This document shows, piece by piece, positions 10,326 to 62,200 of a stretch of 64,000 bases of DNA. Under the pieces are notes generated by a model. It worked only from the letters and a program-made list of their open reading frames with translations, was not told where the DNA came from and searched no databases. The stretch's first letter is position 1; each line of letters opens with the position of its first letter. Origin of the DNA: Minisyncoccota bacterium (GTDB taxonomy: Bacteria > Patescibacteriota > Minisyncoccia > Phycocordibacterales > UBA9973); NCBI GenBank assembly GCA_041657885.1, contig JBBABB010000001.1, forward strand, positions 129,094-193,093. The letters are read 5' to 3'. The position numbers and the translations under genes were made by a program.

Positions 10326-10490
10326 AATAATTTGTTGCTAGGTCTTGCCTAGCAAATAAAAAAACCGCATCTTGCGGCGCAGTTGAAGATCTTTTTGTTT
10401 CTATAAACTAAACACAAAAAGGGTTAACCTTCAAACCGAGCTTATAACAGGTTTAATATATCACAAAAGGGAATATCTTGCAAGCCAGTT

Positions 10491-10515
10491 CAGATAGGGG
10501 CTTAGCCCCTATCTG
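10491..10515. repeat. REP-like 25-bp perfect palindrome cagataggggcttagcccctatctg (copy 1, upstream of RAYT)
   Basis: Perfect inverted repeat. Copies at 10731..10755 and 11236..11260. Confidence 0.8.
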
Positions 10516-10544
10516 GGGAATTTAACTTGTAGTATAATAAAAAT

Positions 10545-11249
10545 ATGAGCATAAGAAAACAACCTTTAGTAACAGGGGAAATGTATCATATTTACAATCG
10601 CGGGGTAGACAAGCGAGATATTTTTTCAGATAAAAATGACATTTATCGTTTTATTGAAAGTATTAAAGAATTTAATAGAATAGAAAAAATAGACAGTCTT
10701 GCAAATCTAAGAAAAATAAAATCAAATTCTCAGATAGGGGCTAAGCCCCTATCTGAAGGACCGTTAGTAGAGATTATAGGATATTGCCTTAATCCTAACC
10801 ACTTTCATTTTATATTAAGACAGTCAAATGATAATGGAATCACTAAATTTATGCATAAACTTCTAGGGGGATATACATCTTATTTTAATATTAAAAATTC
10901 TAGATCAGGGTCTCTATTTCAAGGAACTTTTAAATCACAAACTATAACTAATGAAGATTATTTTAATAAGTTAATAGGTTATGTTAACAAAAACTATCAA
11001 ATTCACAGTATTCCAGAAAATAAAAATGATTTAGTTTTTTCGGGGGATTATGAATATGAAAATAATAAATTCAATATTATTTCTAAAAAAGAAGGGGAAA
11101 ATATTTTAGAGGTTTTTGGAGGTGTAAAAAAATTTAAAAAACATTGTGATGAAATAGTTTCTATTGTTAGAGAGGAAAGAGGTAAAAAATCTTTACTTGA
11201 AGATGAAGATTTGAATGTAATTATAGAAAGTCTCCCAGATAGGGGCTAA
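10545..11249 (+). CDS. REP-associated tyrosine transposase (RAYT; IS200-like HuH-Y1 transposase, COG1943 family)
   Basis: MYHIYNRGVDKRDIF...NPNHFHFIL (HuH) ...GGYTSYFN...SGSLFQGTFKS...YVNKNYQ matches the Y1_Tnp/RayT pattern. Flanked by REP palindromes. TATAAT 6 nt upstream of the ATG. Confidence 0.8.
   Translation: MSIRKQPLVTGEMYHIYNRGVDKRDIFSDKNDIYRFIESIKEFNRIEKIDSLANLRKIKSNSQIGAKPLSEGPLVEIIGYCLNPNHFHFILRQSNDNGITKFMHKLLGGYTSYFNIKNSRSGSLFQGTFKSQTITNEDYFNKLIGYVNKNYQIHSIPENKNDLVFSGDYEYENNKFNIISKKEGENILEVFGGVKKFKKHCDEIVSIVREERGKKSLLEDEDLNVIIESLPDRG
10731..10755. repeat. REP palindrome copy 2, in frame inside the RAYT ORF (encodes QIGAKPLSE)
   Basis: Same 25-mer (one central base differs), codon-aligned. 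Confidence 0.8.
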
Positions 11250-11260
11250 GCCCCTATCTG
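11236..11260. repeat. REP palindrome copy 3, overlapping the RAYT stop codon (TAA in the palindrome loop)
   Basis: Same 25-mer; the stop codon 11247..11249 lies in its centre. Confidence 0.8.
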
Positions 11261-11310
11261 AGAGATTGGGCGTTTTTGAGAGTTTTACGCTTTGATGTTT
11301 ATAAATTATT

Positions 11311-12306: not shown

Positions 12307-14760
12307 ATGGCTAAAGAAAAAGAAGAAGAAATAAAAGATAAACATATTAACGTTGTTTCTGTGGACATAAGCACAGAGATGAAAGAATCGTTCATAGATT
12401 ATGCTATGTCAGTTATTACTGACCGTGCGCTTCCTGATGTTCGTGATGGATTAAAGCCAGTTCATAGACGTATTTTATATGCTATGTATGAAATGGGGTT
12501 AACACACCAAGGACGCTTTCGCAAAAGTGCGGCCGTAGTCGGAGATGTGCTCGGGAAATATCATCCACATGGAGATGTCGCAGTTTATGACTCTATGGTG
12601 AACATGGCCCAAGATTTTTCTTATCGTTATCCTTTAATTCATGGTCAAGGAAACTTTGGTTCTATAGATGGCGATGGAGCTGCTGCGATGCGTTATACAG
12701 AAGCTAAAATGTCCAAGGTTTCATCTCTATTACTTTTAAATCTAGAAAAGGAAACTGTAGATTTCCGACCAAATTACGACCAGACCCGCAAAGAGCCAAT
12801 CGTTTTGCCAACTGCCGTGCCAAGTTTGATTTTAAATGGCACTCTCGGTATTGCCGTTGGAATGGCAACTAATATACCACCACATAATTTATCTGAAGTT
12901 ATAGATGCGACTGTTCACTTGATAGACAACAAAGATGCTACAACTGAAGACCTGATGGAATTTATTAAAGGACCGGATTTTCCAGTCGGTGGTGTCGTTT
13001 ATGGTCAGGCAGATTTACTTCATGCTTATTCTACTGGACGCGGAGGAGTAGTTACTCGTGGTGAAGCGGAGATAGTTGAGCAAAAGAGTGAAACTTTTCA
13101 AATAATAATTACCTCAATCCCATATCGTGTAAACAAATCCGCGCTTATTGAATCAATCGCTCTTCTTATTCAAGAGAAAAAACTTGAAGGGATAAAAGGA
13201 CTTCGCGATGAATCAACCAAAGATATTCGCGTAGTTATTGACCTCAAGAGTGGAGTTTTCCCACAAAAAGTTTTAAATTATATTTACAAGCATACTCAAC
13301 TAGAGCAGTCATTTAATTTCAATATTGTGGCATTAGTTGATGGAGTTCCCCAGACCTTATCGCTCAAAAGTTTGCTTAGTGAATTTATTTCCCACCGCGA
13401 GATTGTGGTTCGTCGTCGAACTGAATATGATTTAAGAAAAGCCACAGAAAGAGAACATATACTTTTGGGACTCAAGAAAGCACTTGACCATATAGATAGG
13501 GTTATTTCTGTTATTCGAGCATCAAAAGATACAATAGTGGCTAAATTAAATTTGATGAAAGAGTTTAAGTTTTCTGAAATACAAGCAATTGCAATTCTTG
13601 AAATGAAACTTCAGAAGTTGGCAGGGCTTGAGCGTAAAAATGTAGAACTTGAATTAAAAGAAAAACAAGAATTAATCAAAGAATTAGAAGCTTTACTTGC
13701 AAGCCCCAAAAAAATGATGACTGTTATTTCAGATGAACTCAAAGATATAAAAGAAAAATACAGTGATGTTAGACGTACTCGTATTATAAAAGGAGGGGTA
13801 AAAGCAATTAACGAAGAAGATCTTATTCCAGAAAAAGAATCGGTTCTAGTATTTACCAAGGGTGGCTATGTCAAGCGAACAGACCCATCTGAATATCATA
13901 CACAGAAACGTGGTGGTGTAGGGGTCATAGACATAGAACCAAAAGAAGAAGATTTTGTCACAATGCTAATATCGGCAAATACTCATAGTGATTTATTATT
14001 CTTCACTAATTTGGGCAAAGCATATCAGATAAAGATGTATGATATTCCAGAAGGAAAACGTGCGACAAAAGGTAAGTCCATAATGAATTTCATTTCTTTA
14101 AGTGCTGATGAAAAAGTGACTTCTATCTTACCGATAGATAAAGAAACAAAAAAGATAATAGAAAATTTAATGATGGTCACTAAAATGGGCATAGCTAAAA
14201 AAGTCGGAGCGGAAAGCTTTAAAGATGTTCGTAGAAGCGGTTTAATTGCGATTAAACTTGATAAGGAAGATGAGTTACAAGCAGTTCTTGCCGTAGCAAA
14301 AGGGGATGATGTTGCGCTCGCGACAACTTTAGGGCAATCTATCAGATTTAAAGAAACAGACGTGAGAGAAATGGGACGTGGAGCAGGAGGTGTCAGAGCT
14401 ATTAAGTTAGGCAAAGGTGATTTTGTTATAGGAGTGGATAGGGTGCCTCGCGGAGAAATCAAACTTTCTATTCTTACTTTGAGCTCAAATGGTTTTGGTA
14501 AAAAAACTAATATAAAGGAATATAAGACCCAAAAACGGGGAGGTTCTGGTATCAAAACGGCGAAAGTCACCCCAAAAACAGGCAAGCTAATAGTGGCAAA
14601 AATAGTTGGGGAGGAAAATGAAATTATTGCAGTGTCTCAAAAAGGGCAAGTAATTCGAGTAAGTTTGAGTTCTATTCCTACTTCTGGCCGTCAGACTCAA
14701 GGAGTAACTGTGATGAAGTTAAGAGGTGGGGACAATATTGCATCAATTACGTGTTTGTAA
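12307..14760 (+). CDS. gyrA: DNA gyrase subunit A
   Basis: [30 protein letters not shown]; the GyrA C-terminal repeat motif (Q.RGG.G) occurs several times. Confidence 0.95.
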
Positions 14761-14776
14761 AAAAATAAAATATTTT

Positions 14777-15208
14777 ATGATAAAAATTCCATACTACGAA
14801 AACTCATATTTTGCTTTACATAATTTTTCTGCTCATTCCATTAAATACAATGGCGTTATTTATACAACAGTCGAACATGCATTTCACTCAGTAAAATTTG
14901 ATGATGAAAATATAAAGGAGGAAATTAGAAAGGCTAGAAGTCCATTTGAAGCTTATGAATTAGGGAAGAAATATAAATCATTTAGAAAAACAAATTGGGA
15001 TGAGATAAAAGTGAGTGTTTTGTATGAGATAATTACAGAAAAAGTTAAGCAACATGAAGAAGTTAAGAAAGTACTATTATCTACAAATAAAGAGGAAATA
15101 GTTGAAGATAATCCAAACGATGATTTTTGGGGTAATGGAAAAGATGGTAATGGTCAAAACCAAACTGGCAAAATTTTAATGAAAATTAGGTCAGAGTTAA
15201 AATCTTGA
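14777..15208 (+). CDS. NADAR/YbiA-family (DUF1768) protein
   Basis: YFALHNFSAHSIKYNGVIYTTVEHAFHSVKF...W......M matches the YbiA/NADAR pattern. ATG at 14777 avoids overlap with gyrA. Confidence 0.65.
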   Translation: MIKIPYYENSYFALHNFSAHSIKYNGVIYTTVEHAFHSVKFDDENIKEEIRKARSPFEAYELGKKYKSFRKTNWDEIKVSVLYEIITEKVKQHEEVKKVLLSTNKEEIVEDNPNDDFWGNGKDGNGQNQTGKILMKIRSELKS

Positions 15209-15241
15209 TCAACCATGGTTATTTAAAGTAAAACTAATTTG

Positions 15242-15269
15242 CAATAAATATACAGGGGTGGATTTATTG
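15242..15269. repeat. Palindrome caataaatatacaggggtggatttattg upstream of PaaX-like gene (imperfect copy of 15910..15943)
   Basis: Inverted repeat around a CAGGGG core. Confidence 0.6.
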
Positions 15270-15301
15270 CAAAATAAATTTGTTTATAATAGTATGTAGA
15301 T

Positions 15302-15880
15302 ATGTCTGAAATAGAGAAAGAATTAAGAAAAGAAAGAAAAAAGACAAATATACAAAAAATTATTTTAAGCTCTATTGCTACTGCTGGAATATTAAGTGTT
15401 GCACTTCTGGCACCCAATGCACTTCAAGTATTAAAATCTCTTGGTTTAGATAAAAAATTGAAAAATTTTAGAAATGATACAAATCGTTCACTTTCAAGAC
15501 TCCTATCCTCTGGTTTAGTCGTCTTTATTGAAGAGAATGGGAAAAAATATTTAAAACTTACCGAAAAAGGTAAATTAAAATTAATACGTCTTGAAAAATA
15601 TAATTTTAAATTTAAAAAACCAAGAAAATGGGATAAAAAATGGCGAATAGTGATTTTTGATATTCCTCAAAAAAGAAGATTACAAAGGGATAATTTAAGA
15701 TTCACTTTAAAACAAATTGGATTTATAAAATTACAACATAGTGTTTGGGTTTATCCATATGATTGTGAAGACCTAATTACTTTATTGAAATTAGATTTTA
15801 AAATAGGTAGGGAGATTCTATATATTATTGCTGATAAAATTGAAAATGATAAGATTTTGAAAGAGTGTTTTAAATTATAA
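15302..15880 (+). CDS. PaaX-like winged-helix regulator (paralog of 54462..55007)
   Basis: C-terminal WDKKWRIVIFDIPQKRRLQRDNLRFTLKQIGFIKLQHSVWVYP matches the PaaX_C pattern (WDG.W.LV.F.IPE..R..R..LR..L...GF..L..SVW..P); N-terminal winged-helix-like region. Confidence 0.5.
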   Translation: MSEIEKELRKERKKTNIQKIILSSIATAGILSVALLAPNALQVLKSLGLDKKLKNFRNDTNRSLSRLLSSGLVVFIEENGKKYLKLTEKGKLKLIRLEKYNFKFKKPRKWDKKWRIVIFDIPQKRRLQRDNLRFTLKQIGFIKLQHSVWVYPYDCEDLITLLKLDFKIGREILYIIADKIENDKILKECFKL

Positions 15881-15909
15881 GAATAGGGGATATTAGATTA
15901 TAAAATTTG

Positions 15910-15943
15910 TTACAATAAATCCACAGGGGTGGATTTATTGTAA
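15910..15943. repeat. Perfect 14-bp-arm palindrome ttacaataaatcca-cagggg-tggatttattgtaa downstream of PaaX-like gene
   Basis: Inverted repeat seen in the sequence. Confidence 0.7.
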
Positions 15944-16012
15944 CAGGGAAATAAAAAAAGGGAGGTTTGTTGATAAAAGTTTATACACATTGCTTCTTTT
16001 TTTAATTGCATA

Positions 16013-16027: not shown

Positions 16028-16555
16028 ATGTTTACTAATCCAGAACAAAATATTTTACATTTAGGACTTACAGAAGGAATGCGTGTAGCAGACTTTGGCG
16101 CAGGGACGGGTTTTTATTCTAAGGCGGCAAGCGCAAAAGTAGGATATACAGGTAAAGTTTATGCCATAGAAGTACAAAAAGATTTAGTGAAAAGGCTTGA
16201 GAGTGAAATAAAAAGTTGGGGTATCTTAAATATAGATTGTATCTGGGGTGATATAGAAAAGAGAAATGGTACAAAAATTTCTGACCAAAGTGTGGATGTA
16301 GTTATTGTGTCCAATGTCTTATTTCAAGCTGAAGACAAGCTTGGGCTTATAGATGAAGCTAAACGTGTTTTAAAGAAAGGCGGTAAGGTTCTTTTGATAG
16401 ATTGGAGTGATTCGTTTGGAGGTATGGGGCCTACAACGGAGAGTGTTGTGACGGAAAGTATGGCAAAAGAATTATTTGAGAAAAGAGGATTTAAATTAGA
16501 AGAAAGTATTTCCACAAGTGCCCATCATTATGGTATAATTTTCAAGTATGAGTAA
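16028..16555 (+). CDS. Class I SAM-dependent methyltransferase
   Basis: VADFGAGTGFYS (motif I), DVVIVSNVL, GGKVLLIDW. Confidence 0.75.
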   Translation: MFTNPEQNILHLGLTEGMRVADFGAGTGFYSKAASAKVGYTGKVYAIEVQKDLVKRLESEIKSWGILNIDCIWGDIEKRNGTKISDQSVDVVIVSNVLFQAEDKLGLIDEAKRVLKKGGKVLLIDWSDSFGGMGPTTESVVTESMAKELFEKRGFKLEESISTSAHHYGIIFKYE

Positions 16556-17855
16556 TTTCCAGACAATTTTAATCGCAATCTTTTTGTCTTTTTTTGTTTT
16601 TGCTGTTTTGATATTCTCGGGAGTTATTAAAATGGGCAGGTCACCTAGTAACAATAGCCCTCAAGGCAAGATTGTTATCTGGGGGATTTTTCCGAATTCC
16701 GCATTAGCAGGTGTGCTTGAGTCTATAAATTCAAATAACGATGGTTTAAGTTCAAGTTATGTAAAAAAAGATGCATCTACTTACCAGCAAGATTTAATAG
16801 AAGCATTTGCAAATGGAAAAGCTCCAGATTTATTCATCATAACTCCGGATATGCTTCTAAATAATGATAATTTTATATATAAAATACCATATGCCAGTTA
16901 TCCCCAAAAGACATTTACTGATTCATTTATTGAAGGAGCAATTATTTATTTAGATGGACAAAATGTTTTAGGTTTTCCAATCGTTGTTGACCCTATGGTT
17001 TTATATTACAACAAAGATATTCTTACAAATGAGGGTATTGTTTATCCCCCAAAAAGTTGGGATGAATTATTTAATCTTAATCCTTCTTTAACAAAAAGAG
17101 ATAACAGTGGGAAAATTTTTCAAAGCATGATTGCTCTTGGTCAATATAGTAATTTGAACAATGCCAAAGATATACTCGCGACATTACTTATTCAAAATAA
17201 TAATAATATAATAGAAAGGGAAAGTGATTCTAGCTATATTTCTACTTTGAATAATAACCCATCAAAAACGTCTGTTTCCCCTATAGAAGCGGTTCTTAAA
17301 TTCTTTGTAGAATTTTCCAATCCATCAAATACAGCTTACTCTTGGAATCGGTCGCTCCCTAATTCTTTAGACATGTTTACAAGTGGTAAGCTTGCTTTTT
17401 ATCTAGGTAGAGCTAGCGAATTGTTTAATATCCAATCAATCAATCCAAATTTAAGTTTTGATGTAACTCAAATTCCACAAATAAAAAATTCTACAAACAA
17501 ACGTACATATGGTGAAATATATACAGTCGTTGTTAATAAAAATTCTAGTAATATAACATCAGCATTTGGGGTGGCAGGAATGCTAAGTCAAGGGGAGAAT
17601 GCCAAGAATTTAAGCATATCTCTATCACTCCCACCCACCTCTCGAGCTCTTCTTGCTGATAAACCAGTTGACAATCCATATTTGTTCACGTTTTTTGATT
17701 CTGCTCTTATCTCAAGGTCTTGGCTTGACCCAGATAAGGGTAAAAGTGATCTAATTTTTAAAGATTTAGTAGAAAACATATTATCAAACAATCTGTCGGT
17801 CAGCGAAGCTATTAGGAAAGCCCAAGGGCAACTTGAGCTTTTACTTAAGAAATAA
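16548..17855 (+). CDS. Extracellular solute-binding protein family 1-like (membrane anchored)
   Basis: N-terminal TM/signal. GKIVIWGIF...GKAPDLFIITPDML resembles SBP_bac_1. Confidence 0.45.
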   Translation: MSNFQTILIAIFLSFFVFAVLIFSGVIKMGRSPSNNSPQGKIVIWGIFPNSALAGVLESINSNNDGLSSSYVKKDASTYQQDLIEAFANGKAPDLFIITPDMLLNNDNFIYKIPYASYPQKTFTDSFIEGAIIYLDGQNVLGFPIVVDPMVLYYNKDILTNEGIVYPPKSWDELFNLNPSLTKRDNSGKIFQSMIALGQYSNLNNAKDILATLLIQNNNNIIERESDSSYISTLNNNPSKTSVSPIEAVLKFFVEFSNPSNTAYSWNRSLPNSLDMFTSGKLAFYLGRASELFNIQSINPNLSFDVTQIPQIKNSTNKRTYGEIYTVVVNKNSSNITSAFGVAGMLSQGENAKNLSISLSLPPTSRALLADKPVDNPYLFTFFDSALISRSWLDPDKGKSDLIFKDLVENILSNNLSVSEAIRKAQGQLELLLKK

Positions 17856-17857
17856 TT

Positions 17858-18307
17858 ATGTTTAAAAAAACACTACCATTTATTTTAGGATTTATAATAA
17901 TTTTTACCCCCCCTCTTTTAGTTTTAGGGGCAGGTTTAGTTCCTGATTGTAATATGGGGGAGATGATAACTGTACCTAGCCATACAGAAGTGATAGACGG
18001 TAAAACTGTAACTATTCCAGAAAATTATCAATACAAAAATCCATGTAATTTTAATGCACTAATGGAATTAGTTAATACAGTTATTAATTTTATACTTGTC
18101 AAACTCGCGACTCCATTATTTGCTCTTATCCTTGTCTATGTTGGCTGGCTATATCTTAGCGATATGGGCAGTGCAACAAATGTTACAAAATCCAAAACAA
18201 TTTTAAAAAATGCTTTCATTGGTTTTGTTATTGCTCTCGCAGCTTGGCTTATTGTAAAAACCATTCTTCTTAGTTTGGGTTTTACCGGCCCGATGTTTTT
18301 GAGCTAG
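17858..18307 (+). CDS. Small secreted two-TM protein, member 1 of pilin-like (VirB2/TrbC-like) paralog array
   Basis: Signal peptide; two C-terminal hydrophobic helices separated by a short polar loop; shared architecture with the five following ORFs. Confidence 0.4.
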   Translation: MFKKTLPFILGFIIIFTPPLLVLGAGLVPDCNMGEMITVPSHTEVIDGKTVTIPENYQYKNPCNFNALMELVNTVINFILVKLATPLFALILVYVGWLYLSDMGSATNVTKSKTILKNAFIGFVIALAAWLIVKTILLSLGFTGPMFLS

Positions 18308-18438
18308 TTATTATTAATTAATCCCGTACGAAGCGTTTATGGCTAATAACGGGAAGTAAAAAATAAAGTTATATTTATGTCGAGTTTATTAAGTTAATGT
18401 AAGTAACGGAAATGTAAACATTTCCTGCTTCGTACGGG

Positions 18439-18915
18439 ATGAAAATTTTCAAAACAAAAAAATATAGTATCCTCTCAAATATTTTAAAATATAGTTTTGT
18501 TGTTATGTTTATGTTTATGTTGATTATCCCCGTTCTATTTGTAAATGCAGAAGTGTGTGCTGATGGAAGTGTTAAAACTGTTTGTCCAGACGGAGGTGGT
18601 GCAAATACTCCTGATGGAGGGGGCACAAATATCACAACCAAAATAGATAACCCCCTAGGACCCAAAATAACAGATATTCCTTCTTTTATACAAGAAGTTA
18701 TAGTCATAGTTCTTACTGTTGGAATTCCAATTATTGCTCTTGCTATTATTTATACAGGATTTCTTTTTGTGGAAGCTCAAGGTAATCCTGAAAAGCTTAC
18801 TAAGGCCAAAAAAGCGCTTCTGTACACTCTGATAGGTGGAGCATTATTGCTTGGAGCGTTCGTTATAGCGAATGCTATTGGTAAAACGGTCGATGAGATT
18901 AAAAGTACAACATAA
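18439..18915 (+). CDS. Pilin-like two-TM paralog 2 (Cys/Gly-rich extracellular segment CADGSVKTVCPDGGGANTPDGGG)
   Basis: Same architecture as the other array members. Confidence 0.4.
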   Translation: MKIFKTKKYSILSNILKYSFVVMFMFMLIIPVLFVNAEVCADGSVKTVCPDGGGANTPDGGGTNITTKIDNPLGPKITDIPSFIQEVIVIVLTVGIPIIALAIIYTGFLFVEAQGNPEKLTKAKKALLYTLIGGALLLGAFVIANAIGKTVDEIKSTT

Positions 18916-18923
18916 TATATTAT

Positions 18924-19277
18924 ATGAATACAATGATTGCTTATGCAGTAGAAAATACAACTGTTGGAGGTGTCGCTTGTGATGTTGCAATAACAAATTT
19001 AACTACTCTTATTAATTTCTTTACTTGCACAATAATGAAAGCAATAGTTCCTTTGCTCGTTTCTTTGGCTATGGCTGGGTTTGTTTATGGGGTCATAAAA
19101 TTTTTTATGAATCCCGATAATGAAGAAAAACGCAAGAATGGGAAAAGTTTTATGCTTTGGGGGGTAGTTTCTTTATTTGTAATAGTAAGTATTTGGGGAT
19201 TGGTCGGGATACTCTCTAATACGTTTTTAAAGGGGGATATTCCAGTTATGCCTTCGCTTCCAGAACCAATAAGGTAG
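18924..19277 (+). CDS. Pilin-like two-TM paralog 3
   Basis: GFVYGVIKFFMNPDNEEKRKNGKSFMLWGVV motif shared with paralog 5. Confidence 0.4.
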   Translation: MNTMIAYAVENTTVGGVACDVAITNLTTLINFFTCTIMKAIVPLLVSLAMAGFVYGVIKFFMNPDNEEKRKNGKSFMLWGVVSLFVIVSIWGLVGILSNTFLKGDIPVMPSLPEPIR

Positions 19278-19408
19278 CGTATTGTATTTTTTATTGATAT
19301 AATGTAATAAGTACGTTTGTGTTTAGTTTTATTTCCTACGGTCGGTGGGATTTAAAAAAATTATTATTAGGTCGTTAATTTATAAAGTTTATATTTAATT
19401 TTTAATTT

Positions 19409-19753
19409 ATGAAAAAAATTATTTCGTTAGGTTTAGTTTTAGGTGCCTTTCCGTTTTTTGTTTTTGCGACAGGAGATGTTGGCAGTATTATATTTCAGAT
19501 AACTGGTTACATTAATTTGATTGTTCCAGTATTAATCACAGTAGCTATTGGTTATTTTATTTGGGGAGTGATTCAATTTATCTCTTCTTCTGAGGAGGAA
19601 GCAAAAAAGAATGGCCGTACAAAGATTATCAATGGACTTATTGGACTCTTTGTTATTGTTGCTTTCTGGGGAATAATTGCTGTTGTTAGAAATACTTTTG
19701 GAATAACTGATAGTAGTGGTACGGCAGGTTCTGACGTAATAATACTTCCATAA
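19409..19753 (+). CDS. Pilin-like two-TM paralog 4
   Basis: GYFIWGVIQFISSSEEEAKKNGRTKIINGLIG. Confidence 0.4.
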   Translation: MKKIISLGLVLGAFPFFVFATGDVGSIIFQITGYINLIVPVLITVAIGYFIWGVIQFISSSEEEAKKNGRTKIINGLIGLFVIVAFWGIIAVVRNTFGITDSSGTAGSDVIILP

Positions 19754-19785
19754 TAATACGTTAGAATTTCTCAATATTAAAATAT

Positions 19786-20109
19786 ATGATTTTCCAAATT
19801 ATACCAGTTGCAGAGGCAAGTATAACAACATTAATGAGAAGTATTGATAAAGTAATTATTAACCCTCTTATTGTTTTGTTGTTTGCTCTTGCTGTGGCGT
19901 TTTTCATTTATGGACTTGCAGAATATTTACTATCTCCAGATAATGAAGAAATACGTAAAACAAGCAAGTCCCGTATGCTTTGGGGAATAATAGGAATGTT
20001 CATAATGATTGCAGTTTTTGGAATTATGGGTTTGATTCTTAACACTTTGGGTGAGAAAAATATACAAGTTTATCCTAGTGGGGATTATGAAATTGGGAAT
20101 CTTAAGTAG
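19786..20109 (+). CDS. Pilin-like two-TM paralog 5
   Basis: FFIYGLAEYLLSPDNEEIRKTSKSRMLWGIIG. Confidence 0.4.
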   Translation: MIFQIIPVAEASITTLMRSIDKVIINPLIVLLFALAVAFFIYGLAEYLLSPDNEEIRKTSKSRMLWGIIGMFIMIAVFGIMGLILNTLGEKNIQVYPSGDYEIGNLK

Positions 20110-20130
20110 TATTAAGAATTTGGTAAAAAA

Positions 20131-20156
20131 AAGCGTCTCACTTCTGTGAGGCGCTT
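20131..20156. terminator. Bidirectional terminator hairpin (aagcgtctcac-ttct-gtgaggcgctt) between convergent genes
   Basis: 11-bp stem (one GU) flanked by A8 and T-rich tracts. Confidence 0.6.
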
Positions 20157-20169
20157 TCTATTTATGAAA

Positions 20170-20595
20170 TTACAATTTTTTGAATTCACATACGACGGTA
20201 ATTTCCTCGTCGTAGAAATAAAGATCAAAATAGGCAACATGTTTACCTGCATCATGGTATTGTCCGTCACCCCAAATTTCTTTTGGACCATTTTGGGCTT
20301 GATGATAGTATTTTTTGCCACCACCAGAACATGTGTAACTGTACCCAGAAGGAACATCAACTTGCTTCACCTCACCTTTTTTTAAAAAGTAATGTTTAGT
20401 GAATCTACTCGGGAGAGTATCTACACTTTTACTTTGTATTTGAGCTTTTGTAGATGATTCGGCTTCAATTTTTGCCTTTTCTTTTTTCTCAGCCCTTTTA
20501 TTTTTACAGGATTTAAATCCAGAAAGAACAAAGAAAAGGAGAACAATTGCTATAAAGCCGGTCCAAAGCCAGCTTTTCAATTTTTGGTCATTCAT
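20170..20595 (-). CDS. Membrane-anchored protein co-transcribed with SPFH protein (possible NfeD-like partner)
   Basis: N-terminal TM; 4-bp overlap with the upstream gene. Confidence 0.25.
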   Translation of the reverse strand: MNDQKLKSWLWTGFIAIVLLFFVLSGFKSCKNKRAEKKEKAKIEAESSTKAQIQSKSVDTLPSRFTKHYFLKKGEVKQVDVPSGYSYTCSGGGKKYYHQAQNGPKEIWGDGQYHDAGKHVAYFDLYFYDEEITVVCEFKKL

Positions 20596-21821
20596 GATTT
20601 ACCTCCTTTCATTATTGATGAAATCAAATCTCCTAATCCGGCAAAATTGCCGAGTGAGCCATCATAAATGAATCCTTTACCATCCTTAATCATTTTCCAC
20701 TTCATGATAAAGTTCAAACATTCTCCTATTGAGATATCAGGTTTGGATACTTCAAGAGCTTCCTTTAGTTTTATAGCCTTTTTAATATCTGTTTCTACCT
20801 CATAGGTTTCAGATTTCCGCTCATTTTCTTCTCTCTGGAAAGCAATGTCTGCTTTGTAAATTTCATTATTTGGGTCTGGGCTAACATCCCCAATCGTTAA
20901 TCTTTGGAGATAAGCTCCGGTTTTAATGATCTTGATTTTGACATTTCCTCGCTGGAGATTTTCAAGAAGAGAAATTCTTACCCTGATTTTTTCTTTCAGA
21001 ACATTGACATTGATATCTAACTCCTTAATTTTCTCTGAAAGTCTTTTCCACTTCGAGTCCATTTCTTTATCCCATTCTTTATCCCATTCTTCACCATCTC
21101 CCCATTGCTTTCTAACAATGGCATTAGGTGGATCTTTTTTCCGATACCAATCTAATAAAATAGGAGTAGGAATATCTTCGTTAATCAATTTTAGATAATC
21201 AAAACCCTCATCAATATTTTTACCTTCTGGATTATTAGGATCTTGACATAAGGCTTTGACTAGAAAATCAATTGTCTGCAACTTAGCTGTTATCATCTCT
21301 TGCCAAGTTGTCGGACCTTCCTCTTTGTGTCTTGAGTATTCACGCAATCTTCCTTCTAAAATGTTTGCGATATGTGCATCAACACCTTTATCTTCTCCGA
21401 TGTTGATATACTCTTCACATGTTTCATCATCAATATTCCAAGCCAGAGAAATGGGAATTTTTATGTCCACATTGTCAGGCGTTAAAATTTGTTGAGGATT
21501 AAGCTCTCTCTGTCTCCGTTCTTTGGAGATAAGAAGAATATCGTAGACTATTCCTTTTAGAAAGACCCAATTAAGTCCCTCTCCTAAAATTACTGCCTTC
21601 TTATCTGTTGTCCAGATTTTTTTACCCAATCTAGTCATAAGACCAATATGGGGAGGCTTGTTAGTGATAGTTACAATTCCCTGAATAATTAATCCACCTG
21701 ATAAACAGGTAGTTAATAAAAGCATAATACTTATATGCGGAATTCCCGCAAATAAGACTATAGTACTGAGAGCAAAGATAGCTATCGATACTATTAATGG
21801 AGTTTTGTCGTCTTTTTTCAT
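20592..21821 (-). CDS. SPFH/band-7 (flotillin/HflK-like) domain membrane protein with coiled-coil tail
   Basis: Two N-terminal TM helices; ILGEGLNWVF...QQILTPDNVDIKIPISLAWNI fits the SPFH core (..G...V...G......PG......P.......R.Q....TKDNV.V.V.AVV.Y.V); long charged coiled coil. Confidence 0.45.
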   Translation of the reverse strand: MKKDDKTPLIVSIAIFALSTIVLFAGIPHISIMLLLTTCLSGGLIIQGIVTITNKPPHIGLMTRLGKKIWTTDKKAVILGEGLNWVFLKGIVYDILLISKERRQRELNPQQILTPDNVDIKIPISLAWNIDDETCEEYINIGEDKGVDAHIANILEGRLREYSRHKEEGPTTWQEMITAKLQTIDFLVKALCQDPNNPEGKNIDEGFDYLKLINEDIPTPILLDWYRKKDPPNAIVRKQWGDGEEWDKEWDKEMDSKWKRLSEKIKELDINVNVLKEKIRVRISLLENLQRGNVKIKIIKTGAYLQRLTIGDVSPDPNNEIYKADIAFQREENERKSETYEVETDIKKAIKLKEALEVSKPDISIGECLNFIMKWKMIKDGKGFIYDGSLGNFAGLGDLISSIMKGGKS

Positions 21822-25967: not shown

Positions 25968-25989
25968 ATAATAAAATCAAAACGAAAAC

Positions 25990-26084
25990 AAATAGTCTTA
26001 TCAAAGGGGCTTTGGAGCGCGTCGGCGCGAGAACTGAGCAAATTTTTAGCAAAAAATTTGAGTACCCTTTGAGAAGAGCTATTT
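25990..26084. repeat. MITE-like repeat family A, copy 2 (inverted orientation)
   Basis: Reverse complement matches the core of 8470..8587; sits between convergent genes. Confidence 0.7.
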
Positions 26085-26102: not shown

Positions 26103-27029
26103 TTATTTATTTTTATGTATCCAAATGTAGACGTCTTCGAGGGCTTTGACTGCGTCGCCAGCGGCAATATTATTTTGGTGGTATCTACCATTCGTACAAT
26201 CACCCGCGGCCCATATACCAGGGACTGATGTCATTTGCGTCATTGGGTCTACTACAATTTTACCAATTTTATCCATCTCAACGACATTTTTTACAAAATC
26301 AACATTTGGTGTTTGCCCGATTTCTACGAAGATACCCGTTGTTGGAATTGTACTTTCAACTCCTGTAATTTTATCTTTATAAGTTAGAGAACTCACAAAC
26401 TTATCACCATCTACTCTTATTATTTCTGCATTTGTTATTGCTTTAAATTTAGGATTTTCAAAAATTTTCTTAATGGTTATTTCATCGGCTCTGAATTCCG
26501 CACTTCGGTGTATTAATGTTACGCTTTTACAATAGGCGAGGAGTTGAGCCGATGTTTCAAACGCAGCATTGCCCCCTCCTATAACAAGTACATCTTGGTC
26601 TGCAAATAAAGGGCCATCACATGACGCACAATAAGTAATGCCTTTATTTTCAAACTTGTCAGCATTTATAGCAACGAGCTTTCGTCTACCACTACCTGTC
26701 GCAATAAGAACAGCTCGTGAAGTAAATTCTTTCCCTGACTCAGATTTTATTGTAAATATTTTATTGCTTTGAATAATAGAAATAATTTTTTCACTTTCAA
26801 TAATATCTAAATATGATCCCTTATAATAAAGAACATGTTTTTTTAAATTTAAAGCAAGATCTATCCCCGAAATTTCAGGTGTCCCAATCCAGTTATATAT
26901 AAGCTCTGAGACTATAGACTGTCCCCCAAATTCATTGGTGATAATAGCAGTTTTTAGTTGTTTGCGAGCAGAATATACTGTAGCTGCAGTGCCTGCTGGC
27001 CCTCCACCTAATATAATTAAATCGTACAT
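26103..27029 (-). CDS. trxB: Thioredoxin reductase
   Basis: YDLIILGGGPAGTAA (FAD), CASCDG redox-active disulfide, GGGNAAFE (NADPH). Confidence 0.9.
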   Translation of the reverse strand: MYDLIILGGGPAGTAATVYSARKQLKTAIITNEFGGQSIVSELIYNWIGTPEISGIDLALNLKKHVLYYKGSYLDIIESEKIISIIQSNKIFTIKSESGKEFTSRAVLIATGSGRRKLVAINADKFENKGITYCASCDGPLFADQDVLVIGGGNAAFETSAQLLAYCKSVTLIHRSAEFRADEITIKKIFENPKFKAITNAEIIRVDGDKFVSSLTYKDKITGVESTIPTTGIFVEIGQTPNVDFVKNVVEMDKIGKIVVDPMTQMTSVPGIWAAGDCTNGRYHQNNIAAGDAVKALEDVYIWIHKNK

Positions 27030-27087: not shown

Positions 27088-27184
27088 AAAATAGCTCTTC
27101 TCAAAGGGTACGCAAATTTTTTACTAAAAATTTGCTCGGTTCTCGCTCCGTCGAGCTCCAAAGCCCCTTTGATAAGACTATTTT
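27088..27184. repeat. MITE-like repeat family A, copy 3
   Basis: aaaatagctcttctcaaagggtac...ctcgctccgtcgagctccaaagcccctttgataagactatttt. Confidence 0.7.
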
Positions 27185-27196
27185 ATTTCCTCCCTC

Positions 27197-54461: not shown

Positions 54462-55007
54462 TTATTTACACGATGAGAGAAATTCTTTTTTGGTGGCTTC
54501 GTCAATTTTATCCGTTACAATAATCATCATTTCTGATGTGAGGTTTAAATCTTTTTTAATATTTATAAAAAGATGCTCATATGGATATATTGAAACCCAA
54601 ACAGAATTTTTTATACAAATAAATCCAGCTTTTTTAAGAAGATATCGAAGAGCTTCGCGTTCGCTTTTTCTTTCTTCAGGAAGGTCAAGAATGATTATTC
54701 TCCAATAGCCGTCCCAATTATTAGAAACAAGAGCTGTATCATCATCTAAAGCATTATTATTAAGACGCTTTTTACCCTCTTCTGATAGTCGGAAATATGG
54801 TTGGTAGTCCGACTGGAAACACTCTACAAGCCCGTCTGACGCTAGATTCTTTATAGAACGGGATATTGCATATTCTGGCCTATTTTTGCTTGTATAGACG
54901 CCTTTTATTGTATTTTCAACCTCTTTTTTAAGAGAATCGAAAGAAACTGCCTTTTTTCTGGCTAGGGTTTTGAAAATTGCCTTCTGGATTGATGATTTTT
55001 TCTCCAT
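54462..55007 (-). CDS. PaaX-like winged-helix regulator paralog, antisense between grpE and dnaK
   Basis: WDGYWRIIILDLPEERKSEREALRYLLKKAGFICIKNSVWVSIYP (PaaX_C pattern). Start at MEKKS (55007), with TGATATAAT 7 nt upstream on the minus strand. Confidence 0.5.
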   Translation of the reverse strand: MEKKSSIQKAIFKTLARKKAVSFDSLKKEVENTIKGVYTSKNRPEYAISRSIKNLASDGLVECFQSDYQPYFRLSEEGKKRLNNNALDDDTALVSNNWDGYWRIIILDLPEERKSEREALRYLLKKAGFICIKNSVWVSIYPYEHLFINIKKDLNLTSEMMIIVTDKIDEATKKEFLSSCK

Positions 55008-55219
55008 GTTGACAATTATATCACTATAATATATATTACACAATAATTTCGTGGTCACGAAATACTTGTCAAAAATAAAAGATGAGTATATAATTGGTTT
55101 AGATTCTCCTCTTGAGGAGTACCCGTAGGGGGAGGTGGAGTATTCAAATGCATCCACCCCGGCTTTCAGCCACCCCTCAAGAGGGGAATTAATACAAAAT
55201 TATTAATAATTAAAAATAG

Positions 55220-58500: not shown

Positions 58501-59889
58501 ATGAATAAAAGTTCTAAGGCTGCGAAGAAGCTCTGGAAGATTGGTTCTAAAGATTTCAACACTCAATATTTTGATTACAATAAAGAGGGCGATCTAATTA
58601 TTAAAGAAGGACATAATATTTATAACGTTCGTTATTTAGCAGAGAAATTCAGCACATCACTCGAAATTCTTATGCCTTTTGTTATTGAAGAGAGGTTAGA
58701 AGATTTCTTGGATTTAGTAACCGCCTTGTCAAAAAAAGTAGGATATAAGGGAAAATTCTTTTATCATTATCCGATGAAAGTAAACCAAAGTAAGGAAATA
58801 GTAATGGCTGTTGCTGGCGAAGGTGCTCATCTTGAAACATCTTCATACAATGAATTATGGATGGTTAAGAAAATGCTTGAACAAGAAAAATTTAATCCAA
58901 ACATTCGTATTCTTTGCTCTGGACCAAAAACTAATAATTATATAAATTTAATAGATGACCTTCAGCATAAAGGTGTTAAGATTTTCCCACTCATTGAAGG
59001 TCCAAATGAATTAAAATTTTTACAATATTCAAAATATGATGTGGGCATTCGTATAGATATACCGGTAAAAGCAAGTTCTCGTTGGAACAAAGCAGTAGAT
59101 AGGTTTGGTTTTTCCGCTAAAGAAATTTTAAGTATGGGCTCATTTAAAAATTTAAAGATTCTTCACTATCATATTGGTTCACAAATTGAGAAACTTTCAG
59201 ATGTTCTTATCCCTATTAAATACGCCCTCAATGTTTATTTCAAACTCAAAGAGAAAAATCCTTCACTTGATACACTTGACATTGGGGGTGGAATGCCGAT
59301 TCCTTACACCAGAGAAAAAATTTATCGTATAGAGAACTTAATGGAGAAAATTTTTAAACTTGTGAAGTCAGAATCAGAAAAAAAGGGAATGTCACATCCA
59401 AATTTAATATGCGAATGGGGAAGGTATATGGTAGCCCCCGCGCAAATAACAATTTATAAAGTTATTGATACAAAAAGAATAAAAAGTAAAAAAAGTCCTG
59501 CCAAGAAATGGTACGTTATAGATGGAAGTTTTATGAATGACCTTCCGGACACTTGGGCGATTGACCAAAAATGGGCTATTTCCCCAGTAAACGATAAAAG
59601 AGATGGGAATTTGAATGAAGTTTGGCTTGCAGGGTCTTCTTGTGACTCAGATGATATATATAAAGGGCTGAATGGAACAGTAACTCTCCCTGACTTTGAT
59701 ACAAATGGAGATAATGATGGAGGGTCAATGTATATTGCGGTATATGATACAGGAGCGTATCAGACATCACTCGCAGCTCAACACTGCATGCTTTCTTCCC
59801 CTATGAAAATCGTAGTAGAAAATGGTCATATTGTAGTGGCTCGTAAACACGAATCAGCTGATGAAGTTGGAAAAAATTTTGGCTGGTAG
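58501..59889 (+). CDS. PLP-dependent decarboxylase, Orn/DAP/Arg decarboxylase (fold III) family; probable arginine decarboxylase
   Basis: LDIGGGMPIPY and GSSCDSDD motifs (cf. SpeA ..CDSDG); adjacent agmatinase supports the ADC role. Confidence 0.55.
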   Translation: MNKSSKAAKKLWKIGSKDFNTQYFDYNKEGDLIIKEGHNIYNVRYLAEKFSTSLEILMPFVIEERLEDFLDLVTALSKKVGYKGKFFYHYPMKVNQSKEIVMAVAGEGAHLETSSYNELWMVKKMLEQEKFNPNIRILCSGPKTNNYINLIDDLQHKGVKIFPLIEGPNELKFLQYSKYDVGIRIDIPVKASSRWNKAVDRFGFSAKEILSMGSFKNLKILHYHIGSQIEKLSDVLIPIKYALNVYFKLKEKNPSLDTLDIGGGMPIPYTREKIYRIENLMEKIFKLVKSESEKKGMSHPNLICEWGRYMVAPAQITIYKVIDTKRIKSKKSPAKKWYVIDGSFMNDLPDTWAIDQKWAISPVNDKRDGNLNEVWLAGSSCDSDDIYKGLNGTVTLPDFDTNGDNDGGSMYIAVYDTGAYQTSLAAQHCMLSSPMKIVVENGHIVVARKHESADEVGKNFGW

Positions 59890-59895
59890 TAGAAT

Positions 59896-59972
59896 ATAAT
59901 TAATAATTAATAATTAATAATTAATAATTAATAATTAATAATTAATAATTAATAATTAATAATTAATAATTA
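59896..59972. repeat. Heptanucleotide microsatellite (ataatta)x11 in the intergenic region
   Basis: Perfect tandem 7-mer repeats. Confidence 0.9.
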
Positions 59973-59998
59973 AGAATTAAAGCGAAACAAATTATTTT

Positions 59999-61015
59999 AT
60001 GAATACAAATTTAAACACATTAGAATTTATTCTAAAAAATTATAAGAACTTCAATGCTCGCGCAACGAAAGACGCGATGATTTCATATTGGCGTCATATT
60101 GAAAAAGGAGGCAAAATGTTTTGGGCTATGGGAGGAGCCATGTCTTCAGCTCAGCTTGGGATTACTCTTGCTCCAGCAATCAGGAATGGATTAATTTCAG
60201 GAATGTCTGTGACTGGGGCTAACCTTGAGGAGTCATTGTTCCGTCTCGTTGCCCACAAGAGCTACAAAGACTTTCCTGATTATAGATATTTTACAAAAGA
60301 AGATGATACAAAGATTTTAGAAGACCGTATGCGACGTGTGACAGATACAAGTATTCCTGAAGACGAAGCATTTCGTGTTGTTGAAAAACAAATTGTTCCT
60401 ACATGGAAAAAAGCTACAGTAGATGGGACAAGAAAATTTTGGCATGAATACTTTTATGAACTTATCCAATCAATTGATAAGAGTAAACACGAAGGAAGAG
60501 CAGATGAATGTTGGTTGCTTGCTGCAGCAGAGAAAAATATTCCAATAGTGGTACCTGGTTATGAGGACTCAACATTTGGAAATATTTTTGCTTCTTATGT
60601 AAAGACCGGTGAATGTAGTGCAAATATTGCTAAATCGGGTGTTGAATACATGGTGGCATGGTACGATCAGTATCAAGATTTGTCTAAGGATAAAGGAGTT
60701 GGACTTTTTCAAATTGGTGGAGGAATTGCGGGTGATTTTCCAATTTGTGTTGTTCCTTCTATAAAATATGATTTAAAAAAAGAAGTAAAACCATGGGCTT
60801 ATTTCTGCCAGATTTCAGATTCTACAACTTCTTATGGTTCATATTCCGGAGCAACCCCAAATGAAAAAATTACTTGGGATAAGCTTACGAAAGACACTCC
60901 GATGTTCGTCATTGAATCAGATGCTACTATTGTTGCCCCACTTATACTTACGGCACTTCTTGAGTGTAAAGCAAATCCAGGTGGAGCTAATAAATTAATA
61001 GAACAAATGGGTTAG
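59999..61015 (+). CDS. Deoxyhypusine synthase-like protein (possible homospermidine synthase)
   Basis: FWAMGGAMSSAQLG...GMSVTGANLEESLF resembles the DHS family. Confidence 0.55.
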   Translation: MNTNLNTLEFILKNYKNFNARATKDAMISYWRHIEKGGKMFWAMGGAMSSAQLGITLAPAIRNGLISGMSVTGANLEESLFRLVAHKSYKDFPDYRYFTKEDDTKILEDRMRRVTDTSIPEDEAFRVVEKQIVPTWKKATVDGTRKFWHEYFYELIQSIDKSKHEGRADECWLLAAAEKNIPIVVPGYEDSTFGNIFASYVKTGECSANIAKSGVEYMVAWYDQYQDLSKDKGVGLFQIGGGIAGDFPICVVPSIKYDLKKEVKPWAYFCQISDSTTSYGSYSGATPNEKITWDKLTKDTPMFVIESDATIVAPLILTALLECKANPGGANKLIEQMG

Positions 61016-61020
61016 GTTTG

Positions 61021-61115
61021 AAATAGCTTTTCTCAGAGGGTACACCAATTTCTTGGTAGAAATTCGTTCAGTGTTCGCTCCGTCGAGCTCACAAGCCCCT
61101 CTGATAAAACTATTT
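61021..61115. repeat. MITE-like repeat family A, copy 4
   Basis: aaatagcttttctcagagggtac...gctccgtcgagctcacaagcccctctgataaaactattt. Confidence 0.7.
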
Positions 61116-61135
61116 CAGACCTAACCCTCAATACT

Positions 61136-62200
61136 ATGAAAGGTAATAAAGAAAAAAAGAAAATATTAGAAGAAAAAATTTCAAAGTTTAATCCCAGTGA
61201 TAGTGGAGCTCTTCATCATGGAATTTTTGGATTACCATTTAACCCTGAAGAATCAAGGGTTATTTTGGTTCCGGTGCCATGGGAATCCACAGCAACTTAT
61301 GGCGTTGGAACCGCCTTGGGACCAAAAGCAATTTTAGATGCATCGCAGCAAATTGATCTATATGACCCGATAAATCCCGATGGTTGGAAAGAGGGAATTG
61401 CTATGCAAGATATTCCTTCTAGTATTTTCTATAAAAATCAACAAGTTAGAGAAAAAATTTTAAAATATTTTGAAAAATATATTGAAAAAGATATAGATAA
61501 AGGATTACAAGATGAAATAAATGTAAGTTGTCTTGAGCTTAATGATTATGTTAAAGAAACCACCAGAAAATTTTTGGAAGATGATAAAATTGTCGGATTA
61601 GTTGGAGGGGACCACAGTGTAATTCTTGGATATCTGAAGGCGTTATCTAAAAAGTATAAAGATTTTGGAGTACTTCATATTGATGCCCATTGTGACTTAA
61701 GAAATGCTTATCTTGGACTTGAATATTCTCATGCCTCAATATTTTTTAATGCTTTAAAGATAAAAAATATTTCTAAATTAGTCCAAGTGGGAATTCGAGA
61801 TTTTAGTCATGCAGAAAATGATTTTATAAAGAAAGAAAAAAATAGAATATCTCTGTTCACAGATTATGAAATCAAAAAAGCAGTATTTTCAGGAGTAACT
61901 TTGAAAAAAAAGTTTGATGAAATTATTAAAAAACTTCCTAAGAATGTCTATATTTCTTTTGATGTTGATGGGTTAATGCCATATCTAAGCCCAAACACTG
62001 GCACGCCTGTCGTTGGTGGATTTACAATAGAAGAAATGGTTTTCCTATTTGAGGAAATGATAGCTTCAGGTAGAAAAATTATCGGTTTTGATTTGTGTGA
62101 AGTTGCTCCAGGAAAAGATGGCCAGTGGGACGGTAACGTCGGGGCAAGAATCTTGTATAAATTGTGTTTATTGACACTCAAAAGCCAAAAAATAAAATAA
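61136..62200 (+). CDS. speB: Agmatinase (ureohydrolase/arginase family)
   Basis: GGDHSVILGYL, LHIDAHCDL, SFDVDGLMP manganese-binding motifs. Confidence 0.75.
   Translation: MKGNKEKKKILEEKISKFNPSDSGALHHGIFGLPFNPEESRVILVPVPWESTATYGVGTALGPKAILDASQQIDLYDPINPDGWKEGIAMQDIPSSIFYKNQQVREKILKYFEKYIEKDIDKGLQDEINVSCLELNDYVKETTRKFLEDDKIVGLVGGDHSVILGYLKALSKKYKDFGVLHIDAHCDLRNAYLGLEYSHASIFFNALKIKNISKLVQVGIRDFSHAENDFIKKEKNRISLFTDYEIKKAVFSGVTLKKKFDEIIKKLPKNVYISFDVDGLMPYLSPNTGTPVVGGFTIEEMVFLFEEMIASGRKIIGFDLCEVAPGKDGQWDGNVGARILYKLCLLTLKSQKIK

Follow-up and report, generated by a model that had tools for sequence, protein, structure and literature searches.

A conserved five-gene array of predicted VirB2-like pilins linked to gyrA and a sugar-binding protein gene in Paceibacteria

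Much of the uncultured diversity of bacteria belongs to the Patescibacteria, whose members live attached to other cells. To our knowledge, Candidatus Southlakia epibionticum is their only genetically tractable member. In this species a type IV secretion system (T4SS) cluster that includes a predicted pilin series is essential for epibiotic growth (Wang 2023; PMC10633639). The series consists of six PF18895 proteins of 103–185 aa (SEML1_0014–SEML1_0019), all of them essential, whose genes adjoin VirB6-, PrgI- and VirB4-like genes near dnaA. A later survey of the candidate phyla radiation (CPR) reported VirB2-like pilins in 1,948 VirB4-positive assemblies, near virB4 in 1,135 of them, and catalogued 441 Patescibacteria arrays of two to 11 genes with a mean identity of 25% and a maximum of 54% (Quinonero-Coronel 2025; PMC12102498). 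Its authors suggested antigenic or host-range variation for the CPR arrays and found no PrgB-like adhesins in CPR T4SS, and a FEMS review of 2025 repeats the findings on Patescibacteria pilin arrays. Here we analyse a tandem array of five such genes, termed A to E, at positions 17858–20109 (+ strand) of a 64-kb stretch of contig JBBABB010000001.1 from a Minisyncoccota bacterium (“the window”), together with the corresponding loci of its relatives.

The initial annotation of the window had described six paralogous open reading frames (ORFs) of 107–158 aa in this interval. The ORF list and a hidden Markov model (HMM) scan yield five consecutive + strand ORFs: A (17858–18307, 149 aa), B (18439–18915, 158 aa), C (18924–19277, 117 aa), D (19409–19753, 114 aa) and E (19786–20109, 107 aa). 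The size range therefore stands and the count does not; no sixth paralogue with the same architecture is present among + strand ORFs of at least 20 aa in 17858–20109, and an HMM built iteratively from the five proteins and their relatives found no further copy in the whole window. The five are 22–43% identical to each other. Their GC content, overall and at third codon positions, is the same as that of gyrA, dnaK and alaS and therefore gives no sign of foreign DNA.

A hydropathy scan resolves a signal peptide-like N-terminal helix followed by two transmembrane (TM) helices in A, B and D, and two TM helices only in C and E, so that the initial statement of a signal peptide or TM segment in every ORF holds loosely, two members being without a leader. 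In A, the leader is followed by an ectodomain of about 40 aa (Cys31, Cys63) and the TM1-loop-TM2 module. B has a long Lys-rich leader and a Cys/Gly-rich ectodomain (Cys40, Cys49) ahead of the same module; the Cys/Gly-rich segment noted initially, CADGSVKTVCPDGGGANTPDGGG, is indeed found in this protein. The public gene call starts B at 18505 (136 aa), whereas the longer ORF from 18439 adds a basic n-region. D carries an apparent short signal peptide of classic type (…VFA|TGD), an ectodomain of about 12 aa and the TM1-loop-TM2 module, and the ectodomain of E, which lacks a signal peptide, is reduced to seven residues. C, likewise without signal peptide, starts 8 nt past the B stop in a different frame and has two conserved cysteines (19 and 35) in an alignment with 18 homologues. 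Its N-terminus, MNTMIAYA, aligns with the final residues of the complete signal peptides that more distant orthologues possess, and this leader truncation is kept across a clade sharing 54–79% identity. A sequence-identical NCBI entry for C is a hypothetical protein of a “Candidatus Paceibacterota bacterium” MAG (locus tag WC908_00795). The charged loop had been given as PDNEE(K/I)RK, which holds for C (PDNEEKRKNGK) and E (PDNEEIRKTSK); D has the related SSEEEAKKNGR, and A and B have other charged loops. Similarly, the WG..G end of TM2 is literal in C only, D reading WGIIA and E FGIMG.

All five proteins have PF18895 (T4SS_pilin), a 71-position model spanning TM1, loop and TM2, as their top Pfam match. 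B (28.3 bits), C (45.0 bits), D (31.9 bits) and E (28.9 bits) lie above the gathering cut-off of 26.6 bits, and A, with 25.5 bits over profile positions 6–71, falls 1.1 bits short of it. B, the most TrbC/VirB2-like of the paralogues, in addition matches PF04956 (TrbC/VirB2; gathering score 27.9 bits) weakly (18.7 bits, E 0.002). Among 100 array members from 20 genomes, PF18895 is matched by every one and PF04956 also by 28 (E ≤ 0.01; best E 4.2e-10). By profile similarity, the array proteins are related to the TrbC/VirB2 family without being members of it by the PF04956 cut-off. The NCBIfam model NF045849 (Mbov_0395 family pilin-like conjugal transfer protein, from integrative and conjugative elements (ICEs) of Mycoplasma) is matched by A–E with 16.6–33.7 bits, below its curated cut-off of 40 bits, and these scores indicate a related family rather than an equivalog. 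The pilin-like reading of the initial annotation, which had proposed searches with PF18895 and PF04956, is thus borne out, with PF18895 best for all five and TrbC/VirB2 weak in B, and we regard it as very probable that A–E belong to the VirB2-like T4SS_pilin family. This family is large: searched against 1.84 billion cluster representatives, a profile of the five proteins retrieved 52,016 at E ≤ 1e-3 and 6,624 at E ≤ 1e-10.

With five tandem PF18895 genes the array falls under the description of CPR VirB2-like arrays, namely at least two PF18895/PF04956 genes in tandem or almost so in a CPR genome. Like the Southlakia and the catalogued CPR arrays, it is built of tandem same-strand genes for PF18895 proteins within 100–185 aa, some with weak PF04956 matches, and like the catalogued arrays it combines strong divergence between copies (survey mean 25%, window array 22–43%) with a reduced CPR genome. 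The Southlakia array has six genes and belongs to Saccharimonadia, whereas the window array has five and belongs to Paceibacteria; the former adjoins virB4/virB6/prgI and dnaA, the latter a gyrA/methyltransferase/binding-protein block instead. With the TrbC/VirB2/TraA pilins of diderms the window proteins have in common a leader-like helix (seen in A, B and D), a pair of hydrophobic helices flanking a short basic loop, the small mature size and a weak but specific profile similarity (B 18.7 bits; orthologues to E 4.2e-10). The classical TrbC/VirB2 arrangement, however, is one major pilin gene beside virB3/virB4, in contrast to five unlinked paralogues here, and the window differs further in its monoderm host, the leaderless C and E, scores under the family cut-off and no demonstrated structural match. 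PrgF of pCF10 and the Mbov_0395/ICE_MMCAP2_0565 family (MPF-FATA) also show TM1, a charged loop and TM2, and Nomurabacteria genes that are probably orthologous to the array are labelled VirB2/FATA_PrgF in the CPR survey (PMC12102498). The alignment of PrgF with the array profile is weak (hhalign, E 0.0035, 9% probability), the neighbouring pCF10 protein PrgG gives no match, and PrgF-type genes are single-copy inside a transfer operon, unlike the window array. Finally, the VirB2 arrays of Bartonella and Anaplasma, which we compared by published description only (PMC12102498), are likewise tandem VirB2-family genes in host-dependent organisms, but they are read as recent amplification for antigenic variation whereas the window paralogues are ancient, conserved in order and position-specific. 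VirB2-like pilin arrays in Patescibacteria have already been published, and the window array adds no new kind of system. The gyrA/binding-protein linkage, the fixed paralogue order and the fusions to adhesin domains are unmentioned in Wang 2023, Quinonero-Coronel 2025 and the FEMS review, and these comparative details appear undescribed.

To place the array in a comparative context, we scanned one genome per GTDB species, obtained 492 confirmed matches and based the analyses on the best 80 loci or species representatives. All of these are Paceibacteria-type CPR (Paceibacterota, Nomura-, Wolfe-, Lloyd-, Campbell- and Vogelbacteria and generically labelled metagenome-assembled genomes (MAGs)), the nearest genomes being Paceibacterota and Nomurabacteria. 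On every contig of sufficient length, genes for an MBL-fold hydrolase, a 110-aa protein, GyrA, the methyltransferase and the binding protein follow one another in this order and lead into four to seven pilin genes. When each pilin was assigned to its best-matching window paralogue, the exact order A-B-C-D-E was found in 46 of 86 loci, the others mostly showing ABCDE cut by a contig end or with one type repeated or replaced. Positional orthologues of the window pilins have a median identity of 49–60% (A: 52%), to be compared with medians of 85% for GyrA, 54% for the binding protein and 59% for the methyltransferase. Since orthologues at 49–60% are closer than paralogues at 22–43% and the order is kept, the paralogues predate the radiation of these lineages and evolve like their neighbours. 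Judged from these identities and from the fixed order, the array is an old, position-specific set, neither a recent amplification nor a hypervariable cassette. A comparison between strains was uninformative because the sole other sample with the array (L002) is 100% identical over 4.8 kb. Two labels among the relatives deserve mention. A contig (L056, JBLHIK010000009.1) in a MAG labelled Flavobacteriaceae carries a Paceibacteria-type binding-protein gene and pilin array and is probably mis-binned, and many TPA records titled “uncultured Candidatus Saccharibacteria” (e.g. L013, L020 and L021) show the gyrA-linked synteny of Paceibacteria, so that the label looks generic.

Upstream of the array lie two genes with which it probably forms one transcription unit. 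The first gene of the apparent operon encodes a class I SAM-dependent methyltransferase by its Pfam families (16028–16555, + strand, 175 aa), for which NCBIfam offers generic ArsM/UbiE-like matches only, far below their cut-offs; a functional link between the methyltransferase and the pilins would be conjecture from gene position. It overlaps by 8 nt the gene for a membrane-anchored sugar-binding protein of MalE type with an N-terminal TM helix (16548–17855, + strand, 435 aa; SBP_bac_8 1.2e-18, SBP_bac_1 2.6e-18), which among solved structures is closest to the trehalose/maltose-binding protein 1eu8 (E 3.5e-9) and whose stop codon lies 2 nt ahead of pilin A. The arrangement recurs in relatives. 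Of 72 related loci that extend 1.5 kb or more upstream, 70 (all but L069 and L072) have the binding-protein gene ahead of the array, and in 64 it lies within 60 nt; in nearly all related loci it immediately follows the methyltransferase gene. The median gaps in relatives are 3 nt between methyltransferase and binding protein, 2 nt between binding protein and first pilin and 18 nt between pilins, and gaps of 2–18 nt indicate an operon. The five pilin genes are probably co-transcribed with both upstream genes, and a terminator-like 12-bp hairpin (20130–20157, + strand), separating E from the convergent gene downstream, probably marks the operon end.

As the initial annotation had supposed, diversified N-termini are set on a conserved anchor: among positional orthologues, ectodomain columns are 21–27% conserved in A–D and 44% over the seven-residue ectodomain of E, as against 54–65% in the two-TM module. 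In some relatives the divergence extends to entire domains. Among array members, 46 of 413 are large (300–1033 aa), and extensions of 200–900 aa at positions A, B and E comprise InlB B-repeat, TIG, fn3-like and DUF5018 domains. Position A ranges from 119 to 702 aa in relatives, with TIG and fn3-like domains, and position E often has a C-terminal extension of 200–560 aa, the pilin module occupying residues 1–120. Examples are six InlB B-repeat domains fused to a pilin module (L007:5737–8838), three TIG domains fused to one (L016:7414–9522) and further extended array members in L056:1472–6407, L019:1311–3122, L039:7985–9355 and L032:10818–12827. The extension lies N-terminal of the module in A- and B-type members and C-terminal in E-type members; both would be extracellular under an N-out/C-out topology. 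This topology also agrees with the basic loop and with the cysteine pairs, which are confined to the N-terminal, predicted outside segments of A, B and C. A second kind of fusion is seen in polyproteins with two to 17 tandem pilin modules, which are the top scorers of the five-protein profile (P0121–P0270). Among them are P0122 with three modules and no leader, P0137 with a leader and two modules and P0129 with 17 modules in 1775 aa. Tandem fusions of this kind require, on topological grounds, an N-out/C-out unit, and they imply that the predicted modules would pack side by side.

Whether a secretion machinery is encoded nearby was examined in the window and in the relatives. Neither the 17.8 kb upstream nor the 43.9 kb downstream of the array in the window contains PrgI or a type IV pilus ATPase, nor, as detailed below, other core T4SS components. 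In the relatives, all clusters of flanking ORFs that are large or carry a Walker A motif were scanned against Pfam, which turned up IF-2, ClpB, ABC, P-type ATPase and LeuRS proteins instead, and tblastn and phmmer searches of the flanks of the 80 loci with PrgJ, PcfC, PrgI and a PrgH-like protein of pCF10 gave no matches. The array is not linked to virB4. At genome level, however, the four array-bearing relatives that could be matched to Table S1 of the CPR survey are all VirB4-positive (Nomurabacteria GW2011_GWE2_34_25, Nomurabacteria RIFCSPLOWO2_02_FULL_42_17, Parcubacteria LiPW_30 and Campbellbacteria RIFCSPLOWO2_02_35_12; PMC12102498). Entries marked “No” in Table S1 include Vogelbacteria RIFOXYB1_FULL_42_16 and Parcubacteria Greene0416_79. 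For GW2011_GWE2_34_25, Table S3 lists VirB4 as coding sequence (CDS) 546 and CDS 787–789 as VirB2/PrgF/PrgF with “VirB4 proximity: No”; CDS 787–789 are probably the same array. Because these four relatives are VirB4-positive, a partner T4SS acting in trans is plausible but unproven for the genome studied here.

We consider it reasonably likely, though well short of certain, that the five VirB2-like subunits form a surface structure for host contact that is built by a T4SS of the VirB4 type whose genes lie elsewhere in the genome. Each protein would be a helical hairpin in which TM1 and TM2 flank a short basic cytoplasmic loop, and both termini, including the variable ectodomain, would face outward. 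A, B and D would enter the membrane via Sec with a cleavable leader, whereas C and E, having none, would need N-tail insertion of the YidC type. A monoderm-style, VirB4-type T4SS would then extract the five subunits from the membrane, and these would be assembled into a surface filament or stalk contacting the host cell. A T4SS-driven filament is proposed because of the homology with the six-pilin array of Southlakia epibionticum and with VirB2/TrbC, and a role in epibiosis would follow the same analogy. Since each of the five positions is orthologously conserved, A–E are better read as a hetero-oligomer of specialised subunits than as a pool of interchangeable antigenic variants, and the fixed order, the adhesin-carrying positions and the polyproteins favour the same reading.

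Several observations weigh against the proposed T4SS-built structure. Neither the 64-kb window nor the ±10-kb flanks of the array in the 80 relatives yielded a homologue of VirB4, VirD4, VirB3 or VirB6. No window protein reaches the PF04956 cut-off, A, C, D and E being without any match to this model, and C and E have no leaders. Polyproteins of two to 17 modules are hard to reconcile with a free homopolymeric pilus, except where processing cuts the chain, and the literature on these arrays reports a pilus of the T4SS_pilin family for no member of the Patescibacteria. The AlphaFold2 model of C, made from a 21-sequence alignment, is a helical hairpin (H26–62 and H67–102), in keeping with the two-TM architecture, with a predicted local distance difference test (pLDDT) score of 85–90 in the core and 71 on average; a Foldseek search of the PDB with this model gave nothing significant (best E 0.55), and the archaeal Aeropyrum conjugation pilus 8dfu appeared at rank 47 (E 5.3, TM-score 0.51), a two-helix hairpin being too simple to discriminate. 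PDB sequence searches with a C-family profile and with a 100-member profile returned TM noise only (such as G protein-coupled receptors and designed channels). As comparison with solved structures is uninformative, the assignment to the family relies on sequence profiles and not on structural evidence.

In an alternative explanation without a T4SS, the five proteins, the binding protein and perhaps the methyltransferase would form an envelope complex of fixed stoichiometry that anchors adhesin- or lectin-like ectodomains or captures host glycans, with no ATPase-driven pilus. We regard this as unlikely. In its favour, virB4 is never nearby, five distinct subunits are kept in a fixed order, polyproteins imply side-by-side packing, relatives carry Ig-like ectodomains joined to the module, and in 70 of 72 loci the array is preceded by the binding-protein gene, whose stop abuts or overlaps the first pilin (median gap 2 nt). 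The force of this last point is reduced by the synteny reaching further upstream, to gyrA and two more genes, so that the linkage may reflect the frozen gene order of streamlined genomes instead of a common function. Moreover, L069 and L072 keep the array without the binding protein, the homologous array of Southlakia has none and lies inside a T4SS cluster, no ABC permease or ATPase partner is encoded nearby, and homology at the family level points to T4SS components. A broader proposal, which we put forward very tentatively and consider rather doubtful as a whole, is that in Paceibacteria VirB2-like proteins would be five specialised subunits, not interchangeable monomers, of a defined envelope structure (a short stalk, channel or anchor), encoded in a housekeeping-linked operon with a sugar-binding protein, with A, B and E as adhesin sockets and an up to 17-module polyprotein in some lineages, and operating with or without a distant VirB4. 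If true, monoderm epibionts would have put the conjugative-pilin fold to a new architectural use.

That the array might instead be a variation cassette, in which interchangeable pilin variants were amplified in tandem for host range or evasion, is the idea raised for CPR arrays by the authors of the survey (PMC12102498), and it would suit paralogues that are just 22–43% identical and ectodomains that are the least conserved parts of the proteins and differ greatly in size between species. We judge it quite improbable here, as orthologues specific to each position are kept across genomes with GyrA identities of only 67–93% and the kept A-B-C-D-E order means that the duplications are ancient and the copies not interchangeable. 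The copy number is also near-constant at five, the other sample with the same strain is identical over its 4.8 kb, and the surroundings of the genes showed neither repeats nor signs of recombination. The initial annotation had further allowed for holin- or bacteriocin-like peptides. Small membrane peptides of this kind, or immunity proteins, unrelated to secretion, would share the small size, the two TM helices and the tandem layout, and E has a single weak PHROG match to a “minor tail” family (E 0.0018). Yet PHROGs, including their holins, Pfam and NCBIfam give no match to any such family, and the T4SS pilin profile is matched by all five proteins; no phage, lysin, ABC-exporter or immunity genes adjoin the array, the neighbours being gyrA, the methyltransferase, the binding protein and an SPFH protein, and the genes sit within a housekeeping block conserved in 80 species. 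This alternative is extremely improbable. The comparative picture favours a hetero-oligomeric structure that bears adhesins over simple antigenic variation, and it sharpens the question of what these pilins build, given a fixed five-subunit operon in Paceibacteria that is detached from virB4, joined to a sugar-binding protein and sometimes adhesin-bearing or fused into a polyprotein.

Some features of the operon may bear on its expression. A palindromic hairpin lies upstream of the methyltransferase gene (15908–15945), and a TATAAT directly 5′ of its ATG suggests a leaderless or very short-leader transcript; all seven operon genes lack a preceding Shine-Dalgarno-like motif. Genes A and B are separated by a 131-nt spacer (18308–18438, + strand) that is strongly structured in RNA folding, with a minimum free energy of −36.3 kcal/mol (z = −4.84) that none of 200 shuffled sequences attained. 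It is closed by the perfect 12-nt inverted repeat CCCGTACGAAGC (18323–18334 and 18427–18438), which is unique within the window and ends 1 nt before the ATG of B. The structured element is absent from the closest relative (L010), where the spacer measures about 21 nt, and it may act as an attenuator or processing site or represent a small inserted element. The spacer between C and D is likewise exactly 131 nt long but unstructured (z −0.92), and Rfam has no match across the operon, the A-B spacer included.

Downstream of the array, a convergent pair encodes a 141-aa, Lys-rich protein with a single TM helix and an SPFH/Band 7 protein (20170–21821, − strand). As a general partner of the array this pair was rejected, being present in only eight of 57 loci with enough downstream sequence. 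One of the eight is the distant Lloydbacteria locus L069, which lost the binding-protein linkage. The window, which also forms part of ENA ERZ27247322 contig k141_114272, is otherwise ordinary chromosome with, among others, gyrA, ftsZ/ftsA, mreB, dnaK/dnaJ/grpE, alaS, hisS, rpoA and genes for ribosomal proteins, RRF and BipA. Between the genes for the S1 protein and the MBL-fold hydrolase lies an IS200-like Y1 transposase gene (10545–11249), flanked by 35-bp inverted repeats (10490–10523 and 11227–11261) and absent from syntenic relatives such as L006. Genes for a NADAR-domain protein and a PaaX_M protein (Cas2-like domain) are inserted between gyrA and the methyltransferase gene (14726–15880), where most relatives do not have them, and a second PaaX_M gene is found at 54462–55157 on the minus strand. 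A thioredoxin reductase-like gene (26103–27029) is flanked by inverted repeats of about 100 bp that are 92–94% identical (25984–26084 and 27089–27189). Lastly, adjoining genes for a PLP-dependent arginine/ornithine decarboxylase, a deoxyhypusine synthase-like protein and a member of the arginase/agmatinase family (58501–62200) suggest that this reduced genome has a compact polyamine module.

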